Source of the DNA: Sphagnum compactum
Taxonomy: Eukaryota
Length of the DNA stretch: 64,000 bases
Assembly: GCA_965153455.1 (NCBI GenBank)
Contig: OZ234493.1
Location: 24,480,213 to 24,544,212 of the forward strand
Direction of reading: 5' to 3'
Each line of letters opens with the position of its first letter. Positions within the stretch are counted from its first letter, which is position 1. The notes beneath the pieces are model-generated. The model did no database searches. It was given only the letters and a program-made list of their open reading frames with translations, and had not been told where the DNA came from. Shown here one piece after another: positions 1-48,723 of the stretch. Made by a program: the position numbers and the translations under genes.

Positions 1-330
1 ACAATTTATTGTGAAATGTCAAAACTTAATGGATTTCCATGCTCTTTCTAGCAAAGAAGGTGTATGCTAAATATTGCCCTTTGGTTGTCAAAATTCATCT
101 TAAATCTACAGAGAGTGAGATTGCTTTGAAAAACCTAAATGCATTATGTGATGTTGGGTTCATTTTGGGGTTACCTTGTATCCTACCTTTCCTTAAGTGT
201 GTGCATACATTGATAAAATTTGCACAAGGTAAGGGTGTGTTTGTTTATAATTTTGTGAACACTATCAAGTTGGCCCAGCAAGAGTTGTTTGAACTTTATT
301 AAGACTCCTTTATTAAGTATGAATATCCAA
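1..330 (+). mobile_element. Degenerate hAT/ZNF862-like transposase fragment
   Basis: Translation WISMLFLAKKVYAKYCPLVV...LCDVGFILGLPCILPFLKCVHTLIKFAQ resembles the (TR)WISML / LL-L-CI-P-L region of ZNF862-like hAT transposases; it is stop-interrupted and lies in AT-rich DNA. Confidence 0.5.
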
Positions 331-33519: not shown

Positions 33520-35350
33520 TGCACATAGATTGCCACAAACCTGCAGATTTTTCTACTTCAGAGAGGACTACCAGGAGTTGTGTTGATGAGCCCAAATCCA
33601 ATAGTCAGTTTCTCACTATGGTGACACAAATGAGACACCTGTTCTTCTTCCACATCATGCAGAACAAATTTCATACAAGGCACTTACCCCGCATCATGCA
33701 TGAGCCCTGACAATATCTGCACTTCTGCATGAATTTCAATCAATTGGGGGTGGTCTTGATCTTCTACTACAAAGTTATGCACCTCATTATTCACTTCAAT
33801 CCAGGTATGACCCGGCTGTTTCTTCACACCTTTCTCCTTTTTCTGCCATTCAAAATTCTCAAAGAGACGCCTATTGCCAGAAGCAGCACATAACCAGCTG
33901 CATTTTCAGGCTTCATTTCAAGAATTTGTTTGGCAATGTGTTCTGCCATCTCCATAATACCAGGGATTCTGCATGTGCTGAGCAAAGCCATCCATGCAGC
34001 GACATCTGGTCCAAAGGGCATTGCTATGAGCAGATTCTCTGCCTCCTGTAGCTGGCCAGCATGGCCAAGAAGGTCGACCATACAGGTGAAATGTTCCAAT
34101 TTTGCAGAAATCATATAGTCTGTGACCATTGAAACATAGCAGCGCGTGCCTTCATCCACCAAACCTGCATGGCTACAAGCTGACAGCAGACAAATAAAAG
34201 TGATATCATCTGGCTGTACACCTTCTGCACACATCTGTTCAAAATATTTAGGAGCATCCTTACCATGCCCATGCATGGCACATCCTCCCAGTATGGTGGT
34301 CCAAGTTACCACATTTCAAGATGGCAGCTTGTTGAACACACTCCAAGCATCCTCCATGCTTCCACACTTTGCATACATGTCAACCAAGCTACTTCGCACA
34401 GAGACCTCAGACTCACAACCGCTTTGAATCATTTGCTGATGAACATACCTGCCCTCTTCAAGTGCAACTACACTGGCACATGCATTCAGCACCCCCACAA
34501 AAGTGACAGAGTTTGGTGGCACACCCTCCTGTTGCATTTTTTGAAATAGTTCCAATGCCTTCTGCCCTTGCCCACATTGCACATGTCCCAATATCATGGT
34601 GGTCCAAGTGACCACATTGCGAGATGGCATCTTGTTGAAGACTCTCCAAGCCTCCTCAATGCTCCCACATTTTGCATACATGTCAACCAAGCTATTGCAC
34701 ACAAAAACATCAGACTGCAAACCACTTTGAATGATCTGCTGATGAGCACACCTGCCCTCTTCAATTGCAACCACACTGGCACATGCATTCAGCACCCCCA
34801 CAAAAGCAACAGAATCTGGTCGCATACCCTCCTGCTGCATTTATTGAAACAGTTCCAGTGCCTTCTGCCCTTGTCCACATTTCACATGTCCCAGTATCCT
34901 GGCATTCCAAGTGACCACATCTTGAGATGGCATCTTGTCGAACACTCTCCAAGTCTCCTCAATGCTCCCACATTTTGCATACATGTCCACCAAGCTACTT
35001 CCCACAAAGACATCTGACTCACAACCACTTTGAAGGAGCTGCTTATGAACAAGCCTGCCATCTTCAAGTGTCCCTAAACCAGCACATGCCTTAATCACTG
35101 GAACAAAGGTGAATTTGTTAGGTCTCACTCCTTCTCGTTGCATTTGTTGAAAAAGCTGCATCGCCTTCTGTGATTGCCCATCCTTCACATATTTTGTAAG
35201 CTTCTGATTCCATGCAAAAATGTTCAATTGCACTGTGCCTGGTGCCATTGCAGCTATCTCTGATGCCACACACCCATGGTGGGTTTTGTTGGTCCTCAAG
35301 CCAGAGTGCTTCCTGTGTCTTCTTGTGTTTGAAATCCGGATACCTTGCAC
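33520..35350 (-). pseudogene. PLS-class PPR gene with E and truncated DYW domain (RNA-editing factor type), pseudogene
   Basis: Repeated P-L-S motifs (SLVDMYAKCGSIEEAWRVFNKMPSRNVVTW). In-frame stops at 34841-34843 (TAA) and 34316-34318 (TGA). The E domain is deleted and frameshifted after AAGYVLL. The PG box GVKKQPGHTWIEV is followed by HDAG*VP, LCHHSEKL, SPL* and loss of the CxxC/DYW end. Confidence 0.9.
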
Positions 35351-36019
35351 TTGTCTACAACCAGAAAATCCAGATCAAGCTGATCAGTGATGTATTGTCC
35401 ACAGCCCAGGCATAAATGGGATCATAAGAACAGAGAAAGCCGCACTGAACTTCTCAATCAGCATATTGGATTTACCTACCTTCTCAAGCCTACTACTACT
35501 ATCTCACCAGTGCTAAGCACTTGAAAAGAATGTTTAGATGAGGGCAGGATAGCAACTAGGAGAGAGCAACCAGATTGACACCAACAAGAGTATGGCTCCA
35601 GGGACTGCAGAAAACCTTCATTTCAAATGATGTGCTTTGATCACATAGAAGCCACGAGGAGGTCTCGCATTTTTGCATAGATTTTGTAGAACCCTTCCAT
35701 TTGACTGAGAATATATCATTGTAATAAAATCAGGTCAAGATTTTTCGGGAAACAAAACACATATTGTGAGAAGGCAGTACACAGAGAAGAACAACACTGG
35801 AAAGCTTACAATTGAAGTGATCTGTGAGTGCCGCCTCTGTTTCTATTCGGCGCGGTCCGGAAAGAAGTGCGGTGTACTGCGAAAGTTGTTGATGGGTAAA
35901 GTGGAATAGCGGGTGCACACAGACACTTAGGAGCAAGTTCCTCCTCGTGCACCTCCCTCTTCTGCATGAGGTGGTGGAGCAGCTGCTTTTGTGGTTTAGA
36001 AAATAGTTAGATCTTGCAC

Positions 36020-38240: not shown

Positions 38241-39146
38241 GTAAGTAGTGCATTGGGGATGAGTAATTCAAAAGAGTATGAAGACTTTGCCATGAAAAAT
38301 CCAGTTATTTGGTTGGCCAGCCAGTGCCACATTCCACAGACTCCTCTGGCATACATAGCCAAATTATGGAATCGCACAAGATTTGCAGCCTTCTGGATAT
38401 GGATACCAAGAACAAGGCATAATTCCACAACTATGTCCTGATGCCATTCCAGAAACTAGATGCTGGAAGTAGGTCTTGAACAGAGAGATAAACATGCTGG
38501 ATTGCTTCAAGTTCCATATTGGTCATACATAGCCAAATGAAATTGCACCTTTGCAGCCTTTTGCAAATGGATACCTCCAAGAGTTCAAGGCATTTGTTCT
38601 CCCATTCCAGAAACTAGAGAAGGAACTAGGGCTTCAGAGAGAGAGACAGAGAGACCCTGGATTGTTTCAAGTTCCACGTGCATGCACTTATGCACACGAA
38701 CTAGGGTGTGGTCAGAGAGATTTCAATGAGTTTGTGCCTACGAGCCAAGTGCACCTTGCTGCTTTGGTAGCACACATCCTATCATGCATGTACATCAAGA
38801 GACTTTGATGAGTCTCATGTGCCTAAGAACCAAGTGCAACTTGCTAGTTGGTAACACACATTCATACATTCAAGAGGGAATTAGGGTTACAGGATTTCGT
38901 AGTCATTCTTAATGAAAGGCCTCAAAAGAATTTTCTTCTCAATGAAACCTGGGAAATGAAAGAACTTGATCCATTTGACAGGAAAATCCAAGTCAATTTG
39001 GGAGCTGTAGAAAACCCTTCACATGAGATGAAGGATAGTACTAAATCCTGATGCAGGTGGATCTGCAGGCCAGTGAGCTATGTGCAATCGGCTGTGAGAC
39101 GGAGCTCCAGTGATCCTGAAGCCATTGTCAGAGATATGCGCGATCA

Positions 39147-39479
39147 TCAGCAAGAAGGAGCGATACAGGCTCCTCCGCCGCAATCGACATAGAGGTCACT
39201 CACATAGCCAATTAGGGTATTATCGCTTTGGAATCCAACGTAATCCCACTGATAATCACCGTCGACGTCTACGCCGCTGGTTGTGCAGTTGATGAACACC
39301 GCTGTCCCTCCGGGGATTGTGGCGACGAACTCACAACCGGCGTCAGGACACGCAAAAGCGTTTGCATCGACCGCCACGGAGTCGCAGGTCACGTAATTAG
39401 AAGCCGTCGTGATCATCAGAAGAAGTGATATGCAGGCGAACGGTAAGAGAGTAAGAGGCACTAGTCTGCACACATCCAT
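39147..39479 (-). CDS. Small secreted cysteine-rich protein with an SH3b-like (microbial cell-wall-binding type) module, ~110 aa, intronless
   Basis: Signal-peptide-like MDVCRLVPLTLLPFACISLLLMITTAS (alternative ATG at 39500). The mature part has 7 Cys and the pattern ACPDAGC..VATIPGGTAVFINCTTSGVDVDGDYQWDYV...GYVSDLYV...C-terminal C. The ORF is GC/CpG-rich and uninterrupted. Confidence 0.7.
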   Translation of the reverse strand: MDVCRLVPLTLLPFACISLLLMITTASNYVTCDSVAVDANAFACPDAGCEFVATIPGGTAVFINCTTSGVDVDGDYQWDYVGFQSDNTLIGYVSDLYVDCGGGACIAPSC

Positions 39480-40825
39480 CCATCCATCCAGCCAGGCCAT
39501 AAATCTTTTCAGTCTCCACCTCAAAACACCCAACTTCCAACTCTCCTCAAACACAAAAGAACAACGATCAGGCTGAGCAATAACAACGACGACGACGATG
39601 ACGACGACGACGAGGACGACAGAGCAAGGTGCATCATTAAGAAGATCACTAGGTGTAGAAGAAAGCTAGTGTTTTTTTACAGCATCAGCGTACTTGACTG
39701 TTTTTGTTCTCGCCATGGTGATGTCGTCTCCCCGCTGTGACATACAGAAAGCTGAGTAACCAAAAGTAGGAGGAACAATTGAACTGAAAAATGGAAGGAG
39801 GAGGAAGAAGAGGAGGAAGGAAGACTTAATGGAACAAAATGAAACTGTATAATAAGACATCTCAGCTGGCAGACTGACAAGTCAACACATAAAGGATTGC
39901 AAATAGTGCAGCTCCGCGTTTCATACGTCTTCGTTATGCAATACCATTTGCTCGGTTATTTTGCCAAGTTGATGTTTCTTGTTTGTCAAAGTTCACTTTG
40001 TCAAAATGCTAACTAAAGTCCACATCCACTGTGCCAAGTTGCCTTTGCTATAAGTTGCCAAGTCCACATTGCCATATCCAACTCCACATCGTCAAATGGG
40101 CCAACTCTTTGAGTGCCCACTGTAAGGGCGGCATCTCCAGCTGTGCTTAGCATGTGATCCTGCTCAGTAAAATGGAATGAAGAAATGTCAAAATATGTCG
40201 GTTTGCGTTACGGAAATGGTTTTGGCTCAACATAATTGCACAGTTTGCGGTCACTGGTCAAAGGCTCACCAACGGTGTGCACCTGCAGATCTGACTGGCT
40301 GCTCATAATGGTTGCTCATTGAAGCATCATATAATTGGTCCAGGTGGTTTGCTATTAGTAGTCCGCAACCTATTTGCCGTCCCAGGTTCATTTTTTTTAC
40401 GGGTGGGGTTGCAAAAAAAAAGTAAATAACTAAACTTGGGTCACATACTGAGCACTGCTGGGGATGTTGTAAGGAATATTCGGCGGGGTTTGTCAACTTG
40501 TTTTGATTTTTTTAGAAATTTAGGAGAGTTTTGAAAGCAAAAACTGCACATACGTAGCTCCATAATTGGGCCTCCTCTTTCGTCAGACTATATTTGGCGC
40601 TCTTTTGTGTTTCCAGGCTTTAAATAGGTCTGCTGGTATTTGACAAAGAGTGTTTCTAGGCTTTAAATAGGTCGGCTGGTATTTGATTTTGCCTGCCTGT
40701 TGAGGCACGGTGTCCCCATTAAGGCAACCTTTTCAGAATCCTTTTTAAAAAGAGACCCTGAGTCTAATGTATGTCAGACAACCCCAGTCCCTGGGCCCTG
40801 TTATCCTCTCAAGTTTGCACTTATC

Positions 40826-42649: not shown

Positions 42650-43520
42650 GAGAAGTGACTTAGCTTGAGCCTTTGGATCAACGATTCCCAATAGTTCTTT
42701 GCTCACTAGAAGAGCAAGGGAATCCCACCAGACTTTTGCCCTTGACTTTTCCAACAGTTTGGCATCACCTCATGGAACTGATGGCACATCCTTGGGTCAG
42801 GGTTCCAACATGTAGAGATATACCACAAGGAGGCTAGCATCACTTGATTGGCCACCAAAATTTGGCCAGCCAAAGAAAGCTTGCAATTGTAATGTGCAAT
42901 AAGTTTTGATTTGAGAGATAACATAAGCCTATCAAGATTAGCGTCAACGGCCAAGCACTTTGCAACCTGATCCCAGCATTAGGGTGGTCAGCAGCCCAAA
43001 TAATGACTAATTTTCTCTGGTTAATCCTAGCTCAAGAGGTTTTGCAAAATAAAGATAGGACATATTTTACCCGATCTAAGTTCTCAGCTGAGCACTAATA
43101 AATAAATTGCAATATCATCTGCAAAGGACTGATCATGAAAAATTCCACCACTTGGAGACATTACTTTCAAGAACATATCCAAACATTAGTGGCGAAAATG
43201 AATATGTAGGGGCAACCTTGCTTCACTACACAGATAGTTGAAAAAGGGGTCTAGGTTATCCCCTTGAACTTAATGGCCCAAAGTAGCAACATCATAGAAG
43301 AGGATAACCATTTTATCCAAGGTTAGTTGAAGCTCAACTTCTCCAAGGCTTGAAATAATAATCCCCATTCAATCTGGTCAAAAGCCTTCTTAAAGTTCAA
43401 AAGCAAAACAAGTAGCTCTTGATTACTTTCCATGACCCACTCCATAGCTTCTTGTGCCAAGAAGTTTTTGTCCAAAATTCATCTTCTTGCTAGAAAACTT
43501 GTTTGGTTCAGATAAATAGT
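42650..43520 (-). mobile_element. Old degenerate LINE reverse-transcriptase remnant
   Basis: Fragments AQEAMEWVMESNQELLVLLLNFKKAFDQIEWG, FADD and LSLAGQILVANQVMLASLWY are typical of the L1-type RT domain; many stops and frameshifts. Confidence 0.8.
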
Positions 43521-43663: not shown

Positions 43664-45113
43664 TTTGAGTTAACTTGACATCCTGTAAATTTTCCCTTTT
43701 CTTTTTCCTTATTCCTATGTACATTTTTCAAATTTACAGTGTGTTTATAAATAAAGTTTTGCAGATTTTGCTGAATTCTCCTTGCCAGTAATTTAGCAAG
43801 AATTTTATAAATGCTACCAGGAAATGTGATGGGTCTTCAATTCCCAATTCATGAGTGGTCACCAGATTTGAGAATGAGTGTAATTAGCCATCTCTTCTAA
43901 AACTCTGCCACCAGGAAATGCCCTTGGGCATGATGGGCTACCCATTGAATTCTTCAAAGAAATTCTTAAAGGAAACCTTTAGAGAAGAAACCCCCAGAAG
44001 GGGAGGGAGGCAGCAGCCCCATCAAACATTAAAGAAATCCAAGAAATACAAGGGGGGCAAGAAGCACCACACGATGGTGACGCAATCAACCCCAAAGATG
44101 CCTAAGTGGTACCATTCCACCCTAAAGGCTTGCTCAATCCTATCTTGAATACTAGGGTCCCGGGTGGACCAAAGGGAATTAATGGCCTTCCAAGTGGCCA
44201 TTCCAACCTCAACGGTAGCAACCCAGGCTTGTTGAAGGATTTTCCTAGAGGAATACTGGTTATCAAAATGCTTCCGGCATCGCTCTGTCCAAAGAAAGTA
44301 GAGGATAAAACTGCGAAGGATGTCAAGCGGTTGTCTGATGTAGGAGAAGCCTCCAACATGGTACCCTTGGACTCCAGGGGGGTCATCTTCTCTCTCGAAG
44401 ACAGCTTCACCAAGCATGACGAAAGGCCAGGAAAGAATGATGTCATTTGGCGCTCCCCATTTTTGCCTAAAGGAAACCTTTAGGGGCTATCAAATAATGA
44501 GTTAAAGGACCATTTTGAGGAGTGCTACAAAACATGAGCTTTTTGATCTAAGATTTAGAATTCTTGAAGATTCGCCACCAAAAATAAAACTTGAACTTGG
44601 GAGGCGCCTAATCTAATTAATAGGAGAGTTGACCAGGATGTTGCTGAAAAGCTCTCAACTTTTGTTTCCTTAGGCCCACTTTAGAGGAGGGTTCAGGGTC
44701 CAATTTCCTAGGAACCAATTTGGACTCATTTGAAGCAAATTGAATTCTTGAGTTGGACTATACCTTGGTCCCTAGCTTGATTCTTGGTTCTCCAAATCAG
44801 GAGCTCTCCTTTTAGCACTTTTTTTTGGTTTTTCCCTCGAAAACAGGTGCCATTTAGGTTTAGCCTCAATTTGCCACTTTTTGGTCTTGAACCCTCATCG
44901 GAAGGCCTTGTTACCAATAAAATTGCTTGAATTCATTGGTCCCTGGACCTTCATCTAAAGTCAACCTTGGCCACCCTAGTCCAGGAAATTTTAGCACTTG
45001 GTGAGTTGATATCATCAAACACCTGTAAATCTTTACTGAGAAACACATTGTAAATTAGGGAAATGTAAAATAAAGGAAAAGGGAGAAGTGACAGGATGAC
45101 AAGTTGGCTCAAA
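43664..45113. repeat. Pair of ~95-100 bp diverged inverted repeats (43664-43765 and 45022-45113)
   Basis: TTTGAGTTAACTTGACATCCTGTAAATTTTCCCTTTTC...AATTTACAGTGTGTTT matches the reverse complement TTTGAGCCAACTTGTCATCCTGTCACTTCTCCCTTTTC...AATTTACAATGTGTTT. Confidence 0.7.
43983..44467 (-). mobile_element. Young 5'-truncated LINE (ORF2 C-terminus plus 39-nt 3'UTR) with a 16-bp target-site duplication
   Basis: Uninterrupted ORF2 C-terminal peptide (DILRSFILYFLWTERCRKHFD). TAAAGGAAACCTTTAG is repeated exactly at 43967-43982 and 44468-44483. Confidence 0.85.
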
Positions 45114-47675
45114 GTGGCTATTCAAGTTTCTGCATGTCCATACAAAGTGGCTATTCAAGTCTCTGCATATCCATACAGAGACATGTCCTGAGTCCGGACT
45201 CAGCAAAGTGTCTGTTGCTTGGAAACAACACAGGGATAATAGCAGGGATAATAGAAGGGGCTTGGTGTCTTCGTATCAACAATTGTGGGCTTGATTGTGA
45301 ATTCAGTCTATGTGGGATTTCGTGGAGTTTTTCCGAGGCTTGATAGTGTTTCAGTGGGCCTATTGGGCATTTTTCCTGGAGTCTTTCCTGGGCTTTTGAT
45401 AATGGTGTGTTTAAGCAGATAAAGGGATTTCCCTGCAGATTAATAACAGCTCCCCAGAATCAGTGTTTTGTTTTTTAATTTTGTGATGTTGCTGAAGAAT
45501 TTTTAAAATATTTGAAATTTGGCCACTAGAAAGAAGCCCAAAAGACCCTTTCATTTGCCATTTTGACAAAAAATCAACAAACAGTGAAAATTTGTCATTA
45601 TTCAAAACGCTGCCCAGAATGTCACCAGCAGGGGATTTTGATTTTTAGTTTGTTTTTTTTATTTAGCTGTATTTTTTTCATTTTTCTGATGGGGAGTGAA
45701 TGGTGATCATCCATAACAAGGACTGACTATTTTTAAAATAAAATTTATAAAATTCAGGTATACTTCTATATTTCCGACTACCTATATATACTTCTATATT
45801 GGCCTATTTTTCAAAAAAACTCAGAAACCTCTAAATCATCGTTTTTAAAAAATCAGCTTTTTGGAAAAGAAAATCTCCAGTATCCTAAAATTCGTGAAAA
45901 GGGGAAAAAAAAACACTAGAACTTACTAGTGGATTCACAGCCTGGAATTTCCAGGGATTCGGTGGAATCAGCCTCTTTGGGGCTTTCCGGGATTAAGCAG
46001 CCTAACGGAATTTCTTGGACGGTTATTGCTATAAAACGTTTTGTTTTGTTGTGGAAGAGAAGCAAGGCAGGCTGCTGCTTCCACGAAGGTCACCAAAGCT
46101 GAAGTAGCACTCCATGATAATTACGCCGAAAAAAAGTATCATCAAAGTGTCTAGTACTCGTAAGCACAGGTGCTGTGCAATGGTTTTTCTCTTTGTTTTT
46201 TTCAATTTCACAACGTATCTAAAGTGGCGACCATTCGTATGAAGATTTCGCCAAATTTGTTTATAAAGGAGAAATGATAGTATTTAAAAAAAAAACCTTC
46301 TAAACTTTTGGCTAATTAGATGAAAAACATGTGTGTCAAAGCTGATTATTTTTCTTCAATCTTGGTTCGAGATCTGGTGATTGAAAACCCCGAAATTCAC
46401 TTCATTTTCGACTTTTTAATTTCATTTAAATCTCGCCAGTTATATTTTGGCATAATTTTGATATAAAAATTTAAGGCCATGTATTATCGTCAGGGTTTTT
46501 TTTTTCAAATTCCTTAGTGAGGTCCACTGGCCAGCATTAGTTCGCATTAAATGGCGACAGTCCTAAGTCGGTTGTAGCATTTTTAAAAAAGTGCTGCTAC
46601 AAGTGGCGACCCTAGGAAGGAAGTGCCTAGGTCTAGATGTGGCTAATTTGTTTATTTTAATTTCGAAAAATGGCGGAAAAAAAATCCTTAACATCGCAAT
46701 TTTTTCATTTTCTGAATAAAAGTTCGCCAAAAACAAAAACCATTGATTACTATAAGCCTGAAGGAAGAAGCGTCTGCTGCGCGGGAGCTCGTGAGGGCGG
46801 TTGAGAAGCCATCCCGCACCCGCGTGCACGCGGACACATTGTCCCACTCTTCGACTTGACGTCCTTGCTATATTTAGCTATTGTCCGTAGCTACTGTCCG
46901 TCCGGATTCAAGAGAAGCTACTTTGTTCCTTTACTATATGTAATATATAGGATATCGAACTCGATCAAATGTGCGTAAATAGTTGAGCGGAGCAACTCGT
47001 AGCTAATTTTAATTTCACTCGTGAAGAAAAAGGGGTGGAACTTCCGTGATCGTGAGATTACGCCGTCTTGCTTGCTTGTTGCTGACAAGTGACGCAATCC
47101 AAAAGAAGAGAAACGGAAACTATTCGTTTTGATAATTTTATCCTCATCGCTCGAGTTCAAATATAGTAGCCGGTGCAATGTCGCGTGCCCAGGGTGTCTG
47201 CCCACACTATTTCATCGCGGGTTCCTTGGGTTCACACGTTCTCCCACTCGGAACCTCGACGTGTCTAGAACCTGCGAAGAACATGGCTTGATGGATACAT
47301 ATAGGATCCATTAGATTTCTCGTCAAGTAAGTTTGTGTGCTCGCGGATTTTTGTTGAATGTTTGTGGAAAACGTCAGATTTGGAACGGAGTCTTCAGCTT
47401 CCTGCTCAAGAAAAGCACTAGTTTTACGCACTCCAAGTTGTTGTACAGAATTTTTTTTTGGGAGATTTCAGTGACCTTGTAGATAGAACATAAAACTTTG
47501 TGAAGGTTTGGGAGTTTGGGAGTTAAGGAATTGGTTTGGAAGAGCCTCGTAGAGAGATAGGAAAATTTGGAAAAGTTTGAGTGTGTCGAGAATTTGGGAT
47601 TTTTGTGGGACGATAAGAGAGGAGCTTAAATTTTGCACAAGAGGAGGAGTTGGAGGAGAGTGTGCAACGATTAAC

Positions 47676-48723
47676 ATGGAACAAAGGGCGATAGAATTGA
47701 CGATCATCTCCGCACAGGACTTGAAAAATGTGAAGTCTTTTAGAGGGAAGATGAGCCCGTACGCAGTGGCATGGGTTTACCCCAACATGAAGGTGCCGAC
47801 GCCCATGGCCCCTAGCGGAGGTGAAAACCCGACTTGGAACGCCAAACTCAAGCTCGTCTGCGAAGAGAGGCTTGTGGAGCAAGGGAATTTGGTGATCACC
47901 ATCGACGTTTACAACCACAGCTCCTTCTCCAACAAAAGCATCGGCAGTGCCAGCTTGCCGCTGCCCCAAAACATGACCGGGGACGGCAAATCTCAGGGTT
48001 CCAAAAACGGGACGCAATCCCAAGTCATTTCACTGCCGGTATGAATTTTTTCCCCGTCTGCTACAATTGACGCTTGCTTGCTTAATTCTTTTCCCTTTAG
48101 ATAGATAATACTGTTGCATCCTGCAATTCTTGCTAGCTAAGAAGCTGCGGCTAATTCGAATTCCTCGAAGATGCATGCATGTGTGACACAATATTCATGT
48201 AAGAGGTTTGAAATTGGGGATTGGATGTATACAGGTGCGGAGACCATCAGGACGTGTGCAAGGGACTTTGAACGTGGCAGTGAAGCTAGGTGAATTAATA
48301 ACGAATATGCCAGCAGCATGGGGATCATCAAACGTAGCAACCGATTACAACGCCACTGGAAGGGGAAAGAATGAGCCAGTGACAGCATATCCAGCTGCAG
48401 GCTACCCAGGAGGTTTTAACCCGCAAGGCGCTGGAGGCAGCAGCAACCAGCAATATGCAGCAGCATACCCACAATATCCTCCACAGTATGCATCACAACA
48501 GGTTCCTTACTATCCACCAGCTGGAGCAGGAGGTGGGTCCTATATGCAGCCACCACCACCTCCTAGGCGCAATGGGTTTGGTGGTGGGGGATTTGGAACT
48601 GGATTGCTGGGTGGTGCTCTAGGAGGTCTTCTTCTTGGGGATGTACTTGGTGGCGGCTTTGGTGGAGGTGGTTGTGGTGGTGGTGGAGGTGGGTGCGGTG
48701 GTGGTGGATGTGGTGGTGGTTAA
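47676..48723 (+). CDS. SRC2-like C2-domain protein with Pro/Tyr- and Gly-rich C-terminus; exons 47676-48038 and 48235-48723 (283 aa)
   Basis: C2_SRC2-like motifs IELTIISAQDLKNV...MSPYAVAW...GGENPTWN and VRRPSGRVQGTLNVAVK, followed by EPVTAYP and GLLGGALGGLLLGD. Canonical phase-0 GT-AG intron. Confidence 0.9.

Follow-up and report, generated by a model that had tools for sequence, protein, structure and literature searches.

The 64-kb window of Sphagnum compactum DNA considered here (the whole stretch of 64,000 nucleotides that was analyzed, with positions counted from its first letter) carries on its minus strand a short gene at about 39147-39716 whose predicted product is made up of a signal peptide and a single SH3b-like domain. 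This is a genuine, expressed, two-coding-exon nuclear gene of Sphagnum peat moss. Judged by sequence profiles and a predicted structure, its protein is a stand-alone SH3b-like domain of a secreted type that is homologous to the cell-wall-binding modules of fungi and actinobacteria. The full interpretation, in which a transferred SH3b module is now encoded by an expressed two-exon Sphagnum gene and acts as a secreted, non-catalytic wall binder, is one that we favor with moderate confidence.

An initial annotation of the locus described an intronless, uninterrupted, CpG-rich minus-strand open reading frame (ORF) at 39147-39479. The frame is indeed uninterrupted over its 110 codons, as read from the sequence, and is present in a single copy in the window, where tblastn gave one match at 6.5e-71 and the next best among the nine matches listed had an E value of 0.66. 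The CpG richness also holds: the ORF has a GC content of 0.53 and a CpG observed/expected ratio of 1.2, compared with 0.375 and 0.41 for the window as a whole, although the first exon of a neighboring C2-domain gene also has a ratio as high as 0.8. RNA was aligned over positions 38900-40400 from a stranded polyA run used as raw reads (X24) and from the contigs of three other runs (X4, X5, and X1). The features of the gene are as follows:

39717..40034, minus strand: 5′ untranslated part of exon 1, its upstream limit uncertain (the X4 and X5 contigs reach 40034 and the X1 contig reaches 40067)
39694..39716, minus strand: coding part of exon 1, the ATG and 7 2/3 codons (MARTKTVK, with the K split by the intron), placed by splice reads and contigs
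39466..39693, minus strand: intron of 228 nt, GT..AG, with 19 + 8 junction reads; it encloses the ATG at 39479-39477
39147..39465, minus strand: coding part of exon 2, with the stop codon TGA at 39149-39147, placed by sequence and RNA
39402..39465, minus strand: exon-2 part of the predicted signal peptide, with the hydrophobic core LVPLTLLPFACISLLLMI followed by TTA (cleavage site placed by eye)
39150..39383, minus strand: SH3b-like domain of the cell-wall-binding type, residues 33-110 of the 110-residue ORF, assigned by profile, AF2, Foldseek, and VIA-align
38900..39146, minus strand: 3′ untranslated region (UTR), which runs on below 38900 (X24 depth 20-58; about 266 nt of the X4 and X5 contigs lie past 38903)

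Splicing is directly visible in the RNA. Nineteen X24 reads join 39465 to 39694 and skip 228 nt, and the identical splice is present in one contig each of X4, X5, and X1. A second joint, from 39465 to 39681, is used by eight X24 reads. Read on the plus strand, the two joints are CT..AC, corresponding to GT..AG in the orientation of the gene. The intron begins with GTACGC and ends with GTGCAG, the GT donor lying at 39693 and the AG acceptor ending at 39466. X24 depth is 38-58 over exon 2, falls to 3-4 in the intron, and is about 16 over exon 1. All X24 reads over 38900-39817 have a single orientation (first_mate_on- depth 0 in all bins of that interval; 307 reads aligned in total), which fits a minus-strand RNA. 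The gene is thus not intronless, and since the RNA splices out 39693-39466, the start codon that the initial annotation had chosen, the ATG at 39479, is intronic. The main start is instead the ATG at 39716-39714 in the upstream exon, in the context caccATGg, and the joined coding sequence (CDS) of 342 nt encodes 113 amino acids. Relatives in the databases show two N-terminal forms, either that of the genomic ORF or M-A-R-T-(K/T)-T-V-K joined straight to L-V-P-L, and the spliced protein forms P0003, P0004, and P0020 have the N-terminus encoded by exon 1.

The 5′ side of the gene is more varied. The alternative 5′ donor, with which exon 1 extends to 39681, accounts for 8 of the 27 X24 junction reads and adds 13 nt that shift the frame of the main ORF; translation of this isoform from an ATG at 39686 would begin M-L-L-V-P-L, which matches the 107-residue database forms P0015 and P0036. 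Further in-frame ATGs lie upstream at about 39744 and 39860, where an ORF at 39666-39860 is listed, and public Sphagnum gene models of 160 residues begin at 39860. X24 has no reads at 39818-40123, its reads being interrupted at the masked repeat 39791-39825, while contigs from X4, X5, and X1 extend to 40034-40067. This would mean either that transcription begins at different points or that the gene models place their start, at 39860, too far upstream. That masked repeat is a low-complexity, CT-rich run in the 5′ region, and a (GAC/GAT)n-type trinucleotide run at about 39574-39625, within the intron, was also masked as a repeat in the read alignment. Farther out, RNA or contig depth in all four runs is very high over the short segments 40131-40164 and 40334-40377, each of them flanked on either side by many loose ends; they resemble fragments of dispersed repeats or of transcripts that originate elsewhere.

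A bacterial-type family in a plant assembly invites the explanation that the sequence is a bacterial or fungal contaminant or a product of mis-assembly. Automated annotations label some copies of the gene "SH3 domain-containing protein" or "YraI," and the latter name, given by prokaryotic gene callers on metagenome contigs, would fit such an origin. However, the gene has a spliceosomal GT-AG intron and yields spliced polyA RNA, and it lies in the same 64-kb window as a pentatricopeptide-repeat (PPR) gene and a C2-domain gene (Pfam matches at 33824-34840 and 47553-48044, respectively). By exact-sequence look-up, its cluster includes Sphagnum fallax BDL97_08G101900, S. magellanicum CY35_08G098500, S. 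jensenii, S. troendelagicum, and S. balticum, and the orthologues in the assemblies of these five species sit on chromosomes of 23.1-25.3 Mb. The intron, the polyA RNA, the flanking genes, and the orthologous chromosomes together refute contamination, the chance of which we regard as negligible, and residence on a plant chromosome and expression, the absence of which would have counted against the initial annotation, are both confirmed.

The gene also has a history within Sphagnum. A paralogue group represented by P0038 (S. jensenii, four accessions) is 53% identical to the protein of the window and has the same exon-1-type N-terminus with the same junction position, as compared with the unspliced-type forms P0070 and P0071; the intron therefore predates the duplication. 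The P0038 sequence is present on 17 contigs, the longest of 18 Mb, which suggests several identical copies, possibly in a tandem array on another chromosome. The GC content at third codon positions (GC3) is 0.54, within the 0.31-0.61 range of neighboring genes, which fits a long residence in the genome.

The predicted pre-protein of 113 residues is made up of the signal peptide and one mature domain of 84 residues, with no catalytic partner. If cleavage follows TTA, as placed by eye, the mature part (39150-39401, minus strand) contains 7 Cys and 11 Asp and Glu residues, has no Lys or Arg, and has a pI of 4.05. The signal-peptide-like N-terminus and the acidic, seven-cysteine mature domain of the initial annotation are thus retained. 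For a wall-binding module, having no Lys or Arg whatsoever is unusual. The conserved cysteines are C32, C44, C49, C65, C100, C105, and C110 in the numbering of the ORF, with C100 and C105 located in a C-terminal tail of the form D-C-G-G-x-x-C-x-x-P-x-C.

Assignment of the domain relies on sequence profiles and on a predicted structure, which agree. A phmmer search of PDB sequences gave 8b2f_A as the best match (2.7e-4), followed by 8b2s_A, 8b2h_A, and 8b2g_A, four chains of one study. The remaining matches listed, five of the nine rows, had E values of at least 0.68 and are unrelated, and the antibody heavy-chain rows that appear in PDB sequence searches are chance or compositional matches. 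Profiles sharpened the match to the fungal 8b2f family, from an E value of 4.1e-11 with seven sequences to 1.1e-15 with a profile of 18 relatives (A2), the latter spanning residues 3-72 of the 74 in 8b2f_A. An AF2 model built on the A2 alignment has a mean pLDDT of 80, with 85-96 per 10-residue block over the domain. Foldseek ranked 8b2s, 8b2f, and 8b2g as its top three, with target TM scores of 0.84-0.85 for the single-domain chains 8b2f and 8b2g, and VIA-align gave Z scores of 13.3, 13.2, and 12.7 with an rmsd of 1.3-1.4 Å over 71-72 residues, placing residues 33..110 of the model on 1..72 of 8b2f. The initial annotation had proposed the SH3b-like module from a fungal and actinobacterial sequence pattern, with Foldseek on a predicted structure as a check; the predicted fold is the expected one.

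Beyond the fungal domains, and at distinctly lower scores, the next VIA-align matches are the SH3b domains of Trichomonas NlpC/P60 proteins (10.2 and 8.7), the endolysin of phage phiSM101 (8.7), and Bacteroides peptidases (about 8). Lower down, at Z 6-7, the structural matches include eukaryotic SH3 domains and the teichoic-acid-binding SlpA/SlpX. At the level of families, Pfam SH3_3 (PF08239) is found at E ≤ 1e-3 in 21 of 32 phmmer relatives (the Sphagnum cluster excluded), 14 of which are above the 27-bit gathering cutoff, and in these relatives it is often repeated and joined to NlpC/P60, CHAP, or Amidase_6 domains. Membership of the Sphagnum protein in SH3_3 is by transitive homology only. 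Two NCBIfam matches were set aside: GsmA (NF038016) reached 19.6 bits against a cutoff of 240 and covers only profile positions 76-152 of 316, its SH3-like part, and the SlaB match is partial and far below cutoff. A search for longer or fused forms with the A2 profile, a weak search over 8000 scored candidates, gave one bacterial CHAP protein and no longer plant form.

The best-described relative is the cell-wall-binding domain (CWBD) of a muramidase from T. saccata. This domain has 73 residues and two disulfides, Cys9-Cys53 and Cys33-Cys72, described as "conserved in all examples" that the authors found (PMC10394673). The domain was depleted from solution onto Micrococcus lysodeikticus cells and not onto Avicel, and muramidase activity was higher with the domain attached and lower with it removed (PMC10394673). 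The domain binds triglycine, Arg10 being the only side chain in contact with the ligand and the other two contacts coming from the main chain (PMC10394673). A site adjoining the position of the C-terminal tail was suggested by the authors to affect specificity (PMC10394673).

Compared with this fungal family, the Sphagnum domain is homologous over the whole of the approximately 73 residues at 31-32% identity, and its predicted fold is alike (Z 13.3, rmsd 1.4 Å over 72 residues). The equivalent of Cys33-Cys72 is kept as C65 and C110, both invariant, as is the core motif W...G-Y-V-x-D-x-Y-V, and both proteins are secreted eukaryotic versions of a bacterial-type module. Five other conserved cysteines (C32, C44, C49, C100, and C105) and the C-terminal Cys tail set the Sphagnum protein apart from the fungal family; it also lacks basic residues and has no GH24, GH184, amidase, C40, or M23 partner; its host is a plant, and its gene has an intron in the signal-peptide region. 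Among the named relatives in a large protein search, the highest scores belong to actinobacterial SH3_3 domains, which occur as repeats in NlpC/P60, CHAP, and amidase hydrolases and as small stand-alone secreted proteins in Pseudonocardiaceae and Micromonospora. The Pseudonocardiaceae-type stand-alone proteins (129-131 residues) have the same architecture of a signal peptide and one domain, but these actinobacterial relatives differ in having four cysteines, the first of them followed by an insert, as well as high GC and an Arg in the RT-loop motif, and they are only 24-26% identical. The Trichomonas vaginalis NlpC/P60 SH3b domains (6biq and 6bim), the next-best structural matches, are fused to a catalytic NlpC/P60 domain and are 12-16% identical in sequence. 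They represent what we take to be a bacterial wall-binding module gained by a eukaryote through lateral transfer.

Several observations count against the proposed identity and function. The ORF scores only 14.1 bits (E 0.053) against Pfam SH3_3, below the 27-bit gathering cutoff. The first fungal disulfide, Cys9-Cys53, has no equivalent, its positions being taken by Ala41 and the invariant Gly91, and the seven cysteines are an odd number, so that one must be unpaired or engaged in an intermolecular bond. The ligand-contacting Arg10 corresponds to Phe42, with Leu or Tyr in the paralogue group, whereas an Arg is present in the sister clade of the Sphagnum proteins and in the actinobacterial proteins. 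Binding to peptidoglycan or to the cell wall is itself a property carried over by homology. With the first disulfide and the attachment to an enzyme lacking and the Pfam threshold missed, the protein is best filed as a divergent relative and not as a typical member.

Conservation within Sphagnum bears on whether the gene is functional. The 37 proteins retrieved for the Sphagnum group reduce to 21 unique mature-domain sequences, 18 of which have the same length as that of the window. Among these 18, all 7 cysteines and 59 of 82 positions are invariant, and the frame through the domain is open in all 37 proteins. Rough dN/dS values, from the CDS differences among those listed, are 0.59 for X4 (13 substitutions) and 0.25 for X1 (9 substitutions). 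The dN/dS check that the initial annotation had proposed gives only a hint of purifying selection, and that these values rest on only 9-13 substitutions among the differences listed counts as a further weakness of the overall interpretation. Within X24, 47 of 47 reads have A in place of T at 39229, so that the 113-residue protein has Leu and not Gln as residue 87; the neighboring Phe86 is Leu in other runs, and residues 86-87 form a variable surface patch.

It is possible to read the gene as an expressed but functionless relic, an acquired sequence decaying under neutral drift. The divergence of X4 is about equal in the CDS (at least 13 substitutions in 319 nt) and the 3′ UTR (9 substitutions and 2 insertions in about 244 nt), and both the dN/dS of 0.59 and the use of a frameshifting donor by 8 of 27 junction reads would agree with decay. 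Against this, two paralogue groups that are only about 53% identical both retain the signal peptide, all 7 cysteines, and the core motif; the frame and the cysteines are preserved as described above; and polyA expression is clear. We consider a relic very improbable.

The origin of the family was approached through a phmmer search over 1.84 billion protein representatives at E ≤ 1e-3, which gave 33 matches; names were looked up for 21 of these 33. Among the named matches there were no plants other than Sphagnum. The other names were Pseudonocardiaceae, Propionibacteriaceae, and Streptomyces, to which further searches added Amycolatopsis and Micromonospora. With Sphagnum as the only named plant, horizontal acquisition is likely, and we think that a bacterium or a fungus was probably the source from which the Sphagnum lineage gained the family, before the paralogues split. 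The donor is given in this broad form because fungal and actinobacterial domains score alike. A profile of the Sphagnum and sister sequences (A3) matches 14 of 401 sampled Actinomycetota genomes at E ≤ 1e-5, with a best score of 49.6 bits, and gives 53 bits against an unpublished metagenome-assembled genome (MAG) of Pseudonocardiaceae, G001, outside that sample. Nearest clusters to the mature domain in the Protein Atlas are an Ascomycota "putative SH3b" cluster (0.95), Actinomycetota (0.94), and Chloroflexota (0.94), while P0056 lies nearest to bacterial SH3 clusters (0.93-0.95); we treat these proximities as no more than leads.

A maximum-likelihood tree of the domain was built from an alignment of 52 rows with 83 columns, which is short for so many sequences. 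It is unrooted, and the partial-match repeat proteins of the P0039 type and the fungal CWBDs were left out. One clade (98/96) unites the five chromosome-8-type Sphagnum rows with P0038 and the unnamed P0040, and its sister group is made up of P0044, P0056, P0058, and P0061 (95/84). These four are small secreted proteins that have the C-terminal Cys triad in common with Sphagnum but are only 28-31% identical to it. The Pseudonocardiaceae-type stand-alone proteins are next out (91/81), and the remaining rows are multi-repeat proteins, the named ones actinobacterial. The initial annotation had expected bryophyte paralogues nested among fungal and bacterial sequences. In this unrooted tree, the Sphagnum paralogues lie within an otherwise unnamed or actinobacterial set, with unnamed sequences as the closest sisters.

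Scans for close relatives were also made on sets of contigs with single proteins. That with P0061, on metagenome contigs, gave 155 pattern matches and no relative, and that with P0044, on the contigs of bacterial species genomes, gave 427 pattern matches and no relative, in a scan that detects close relatives only. The P0060 scan gave three actinobacterial loci; at one of these (L001), for which the ORF listing rests on the unpublished G001, the neighbors are sensor-kinase-like and response-regulator-like ORFs, which provide no functional hint.

Alternatively, the family may be old in plants or in eukaryotes generally, inherited vertically with many losses, in which case the sister sequences would be eukaryotic and no transfer would be required. 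The contigs of P0044, P0056, and P0058 are 908-942 nt long and yet code for only 103-111 residues, as would transcripts with UTRs, and the shared Cys triad, the intron, and the host-like composition are all compatible with this view, as is the blank P0044 scan, although a scan restricted to close relatives makes that blank weak evidence. On the other side, Sphagnum is the sole named plant among the matches, its identity to the sister clade is low, and bacterial proteins, in which SH3_3 is linked to hydrolases of the wall, make up the great bulk of the wider family. Vertical descent is therefore, in our judgment, improbable, though less so than a relic. The same facts mark the weak points of transfer: the nearest four non-Sphagnum sequences are unnamed, and for three of these the contigs, each of about 900 nt, may be eukaryotic transcripts; the tree has no root; fungal domains reach 46.3 bits against the A3 profile, alike to the actinobacterial 49.6-53 bits; and small plant genes are often unannotated, the plant coverage here being at the protein level only. 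The microbial origin put forward in the initial annotation is thus plausible in that all named matches are Sphagnum or actinobacterial, while the choice between fungal and actinobacterial sources stays as broad as the similar scores leave it.

If the family was acquired by transfer, the event would be old enough for an intron to have been gained, for the composition to have become host-like, for duplication into two groups about 53% identical, and for inheritance by at least five species. Frequent gene transfer into bryophytes has been reported (PMC12513842). The term "SH3" does not occur in the main text of that report, whose catalogue sits in its supplements, so that the family may be listed there (PMC12513842). 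Our literature search found no paper linking Sphagnum, horizontal gene transfer, and SH3, nor one linking bacterial SH3 domains with such transfer and a moss, or SH3b with a bryophyte.

By analogy with its homologues, the secreted protein could be a non-catalytic, lectin-like binder of microbial walls, directed at the stem or bridge peptides of peptidoglycan, in the acidic, water-filled apoplast; we regard this specific role as nearly an even proposition, falling slightly short of it. The protein would be secreted co-translationally and its signal peptide removed, and an 84-residue, disulfide-locked SH3b barrel would be released into acidic apoplastic or hyaline-cell water. There, going by homology, its most likely target would be a peptide or glycopeptide element in the walls of microbes, which it would bind but not cleave. 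The outcome might be coating, agglutination, retention of bacteria, or competition with the wall enzymes of microbes. The walls of Sphagnum act as polyanionic cation exchangers. It may be speculated that the absence of Lys and Arg would prevent the protein from sticking to the polyanionic wall of the moss itself, so that it stays mobile.

The binding site has probably been re-tuned, as the peptide-contacting Arg of the fungal domain is replaced, and the Arg-to-Phe change, together with the new Cys tail beside the site that the authors of the fungal study link to specificity, argues for a ligand that may not be the one bound by the fungal domain. Taken further, these changes lead to an account in which the gene and fold are as described but the domain has been repurposed toward another ligand, whether a fungal or oomycete wall polymer, the wall of the moss, a microbial protein such as a lysin, or a receptor to which it would be presented as a Cys-rich signal. 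In all aligned Sphagnum sequences Phe, Leu, or Tyr stands in place of the contacting Arg, which the sister clade and the actinobacterial proteins retain, the extra cysteines and tail lie near the suggested specificity site, and SH3 folds as a class take many types of ligand, as seen for SlpA/SlpX and the eukaryotic SH3 domains. However, the nearest relatives in both sequence and structure are all modules of cell-wall hydrolases, and two of the three triglycine contacts in the fungal domain come from the main chain and are independent of the side chain (PMC10394673). We consider repurposing unlikely, yet it is the most probable of the alternatives considered.

A more elaborate form of the wall-binding proposal can also be drawn, which we put forward tentatively and think rather doubtful. 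Here a microbial SH3b module would have been domesticated and re-engineered for bog water, as a diffusible, soluble lectin with which the moss would capture, agglutinate, or select bacteria in its hyaline cells, cyanobacteria and methanotrophs for example. Locked by disulfides and free of basic residues, it would escape trapping by the cation-exchanging wall at pH 3-4.5, with an aromatic residue in place of Arg at the ligand site. If this is true, the lectin would be a plant-encoded structuring factor of the peat-moss microbiome.

Elsewhere in the window, at 33824-35374 on the minus strand, downstream of the gene, long PPR-rich frames are split by stops and frame changes; Pfam was run on 33824-34840 only, and the frames point to a plant pentatricopeptide-repeat gene. 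At 47553-48723 on the plus strand, a C2-domain ORF is followed in a second frame by a Gly/Pro/Tyr-rich stretch with a poly-Gly/Cys tail, which suggests a two-exon C2-domain gene. Two minus-strand open frames, 44022-44486 and 42706-42978, resemble retrotransposon remnants by eye and gave no Pfam match at E ≤ 1e-3.

Sphagnum is the builder of peatlands and relies on an intimate microbiome. To our knowledge, the means by which the plant recognizes and arranges its microbes are largely unknown. The protein described here is not a new kind of system, as its domain family is already known, and what it offers is a clean example of a microbial-type module turned into a spliced and duplicated plant gene. 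The lost disulfide, the new cysteines, the lost Arg, and the absence of basic residues could show how the specificity and stability of an SH3b domain are re-tuned for very acidic conditions. The protein may help the moss to interact with its microbes, and as a lineage-restricted, expressed, predicted-secreted protein made up only of a bacterial-cell-wall-binding fold, it is a testable candidate for the interface between moss and microbe.

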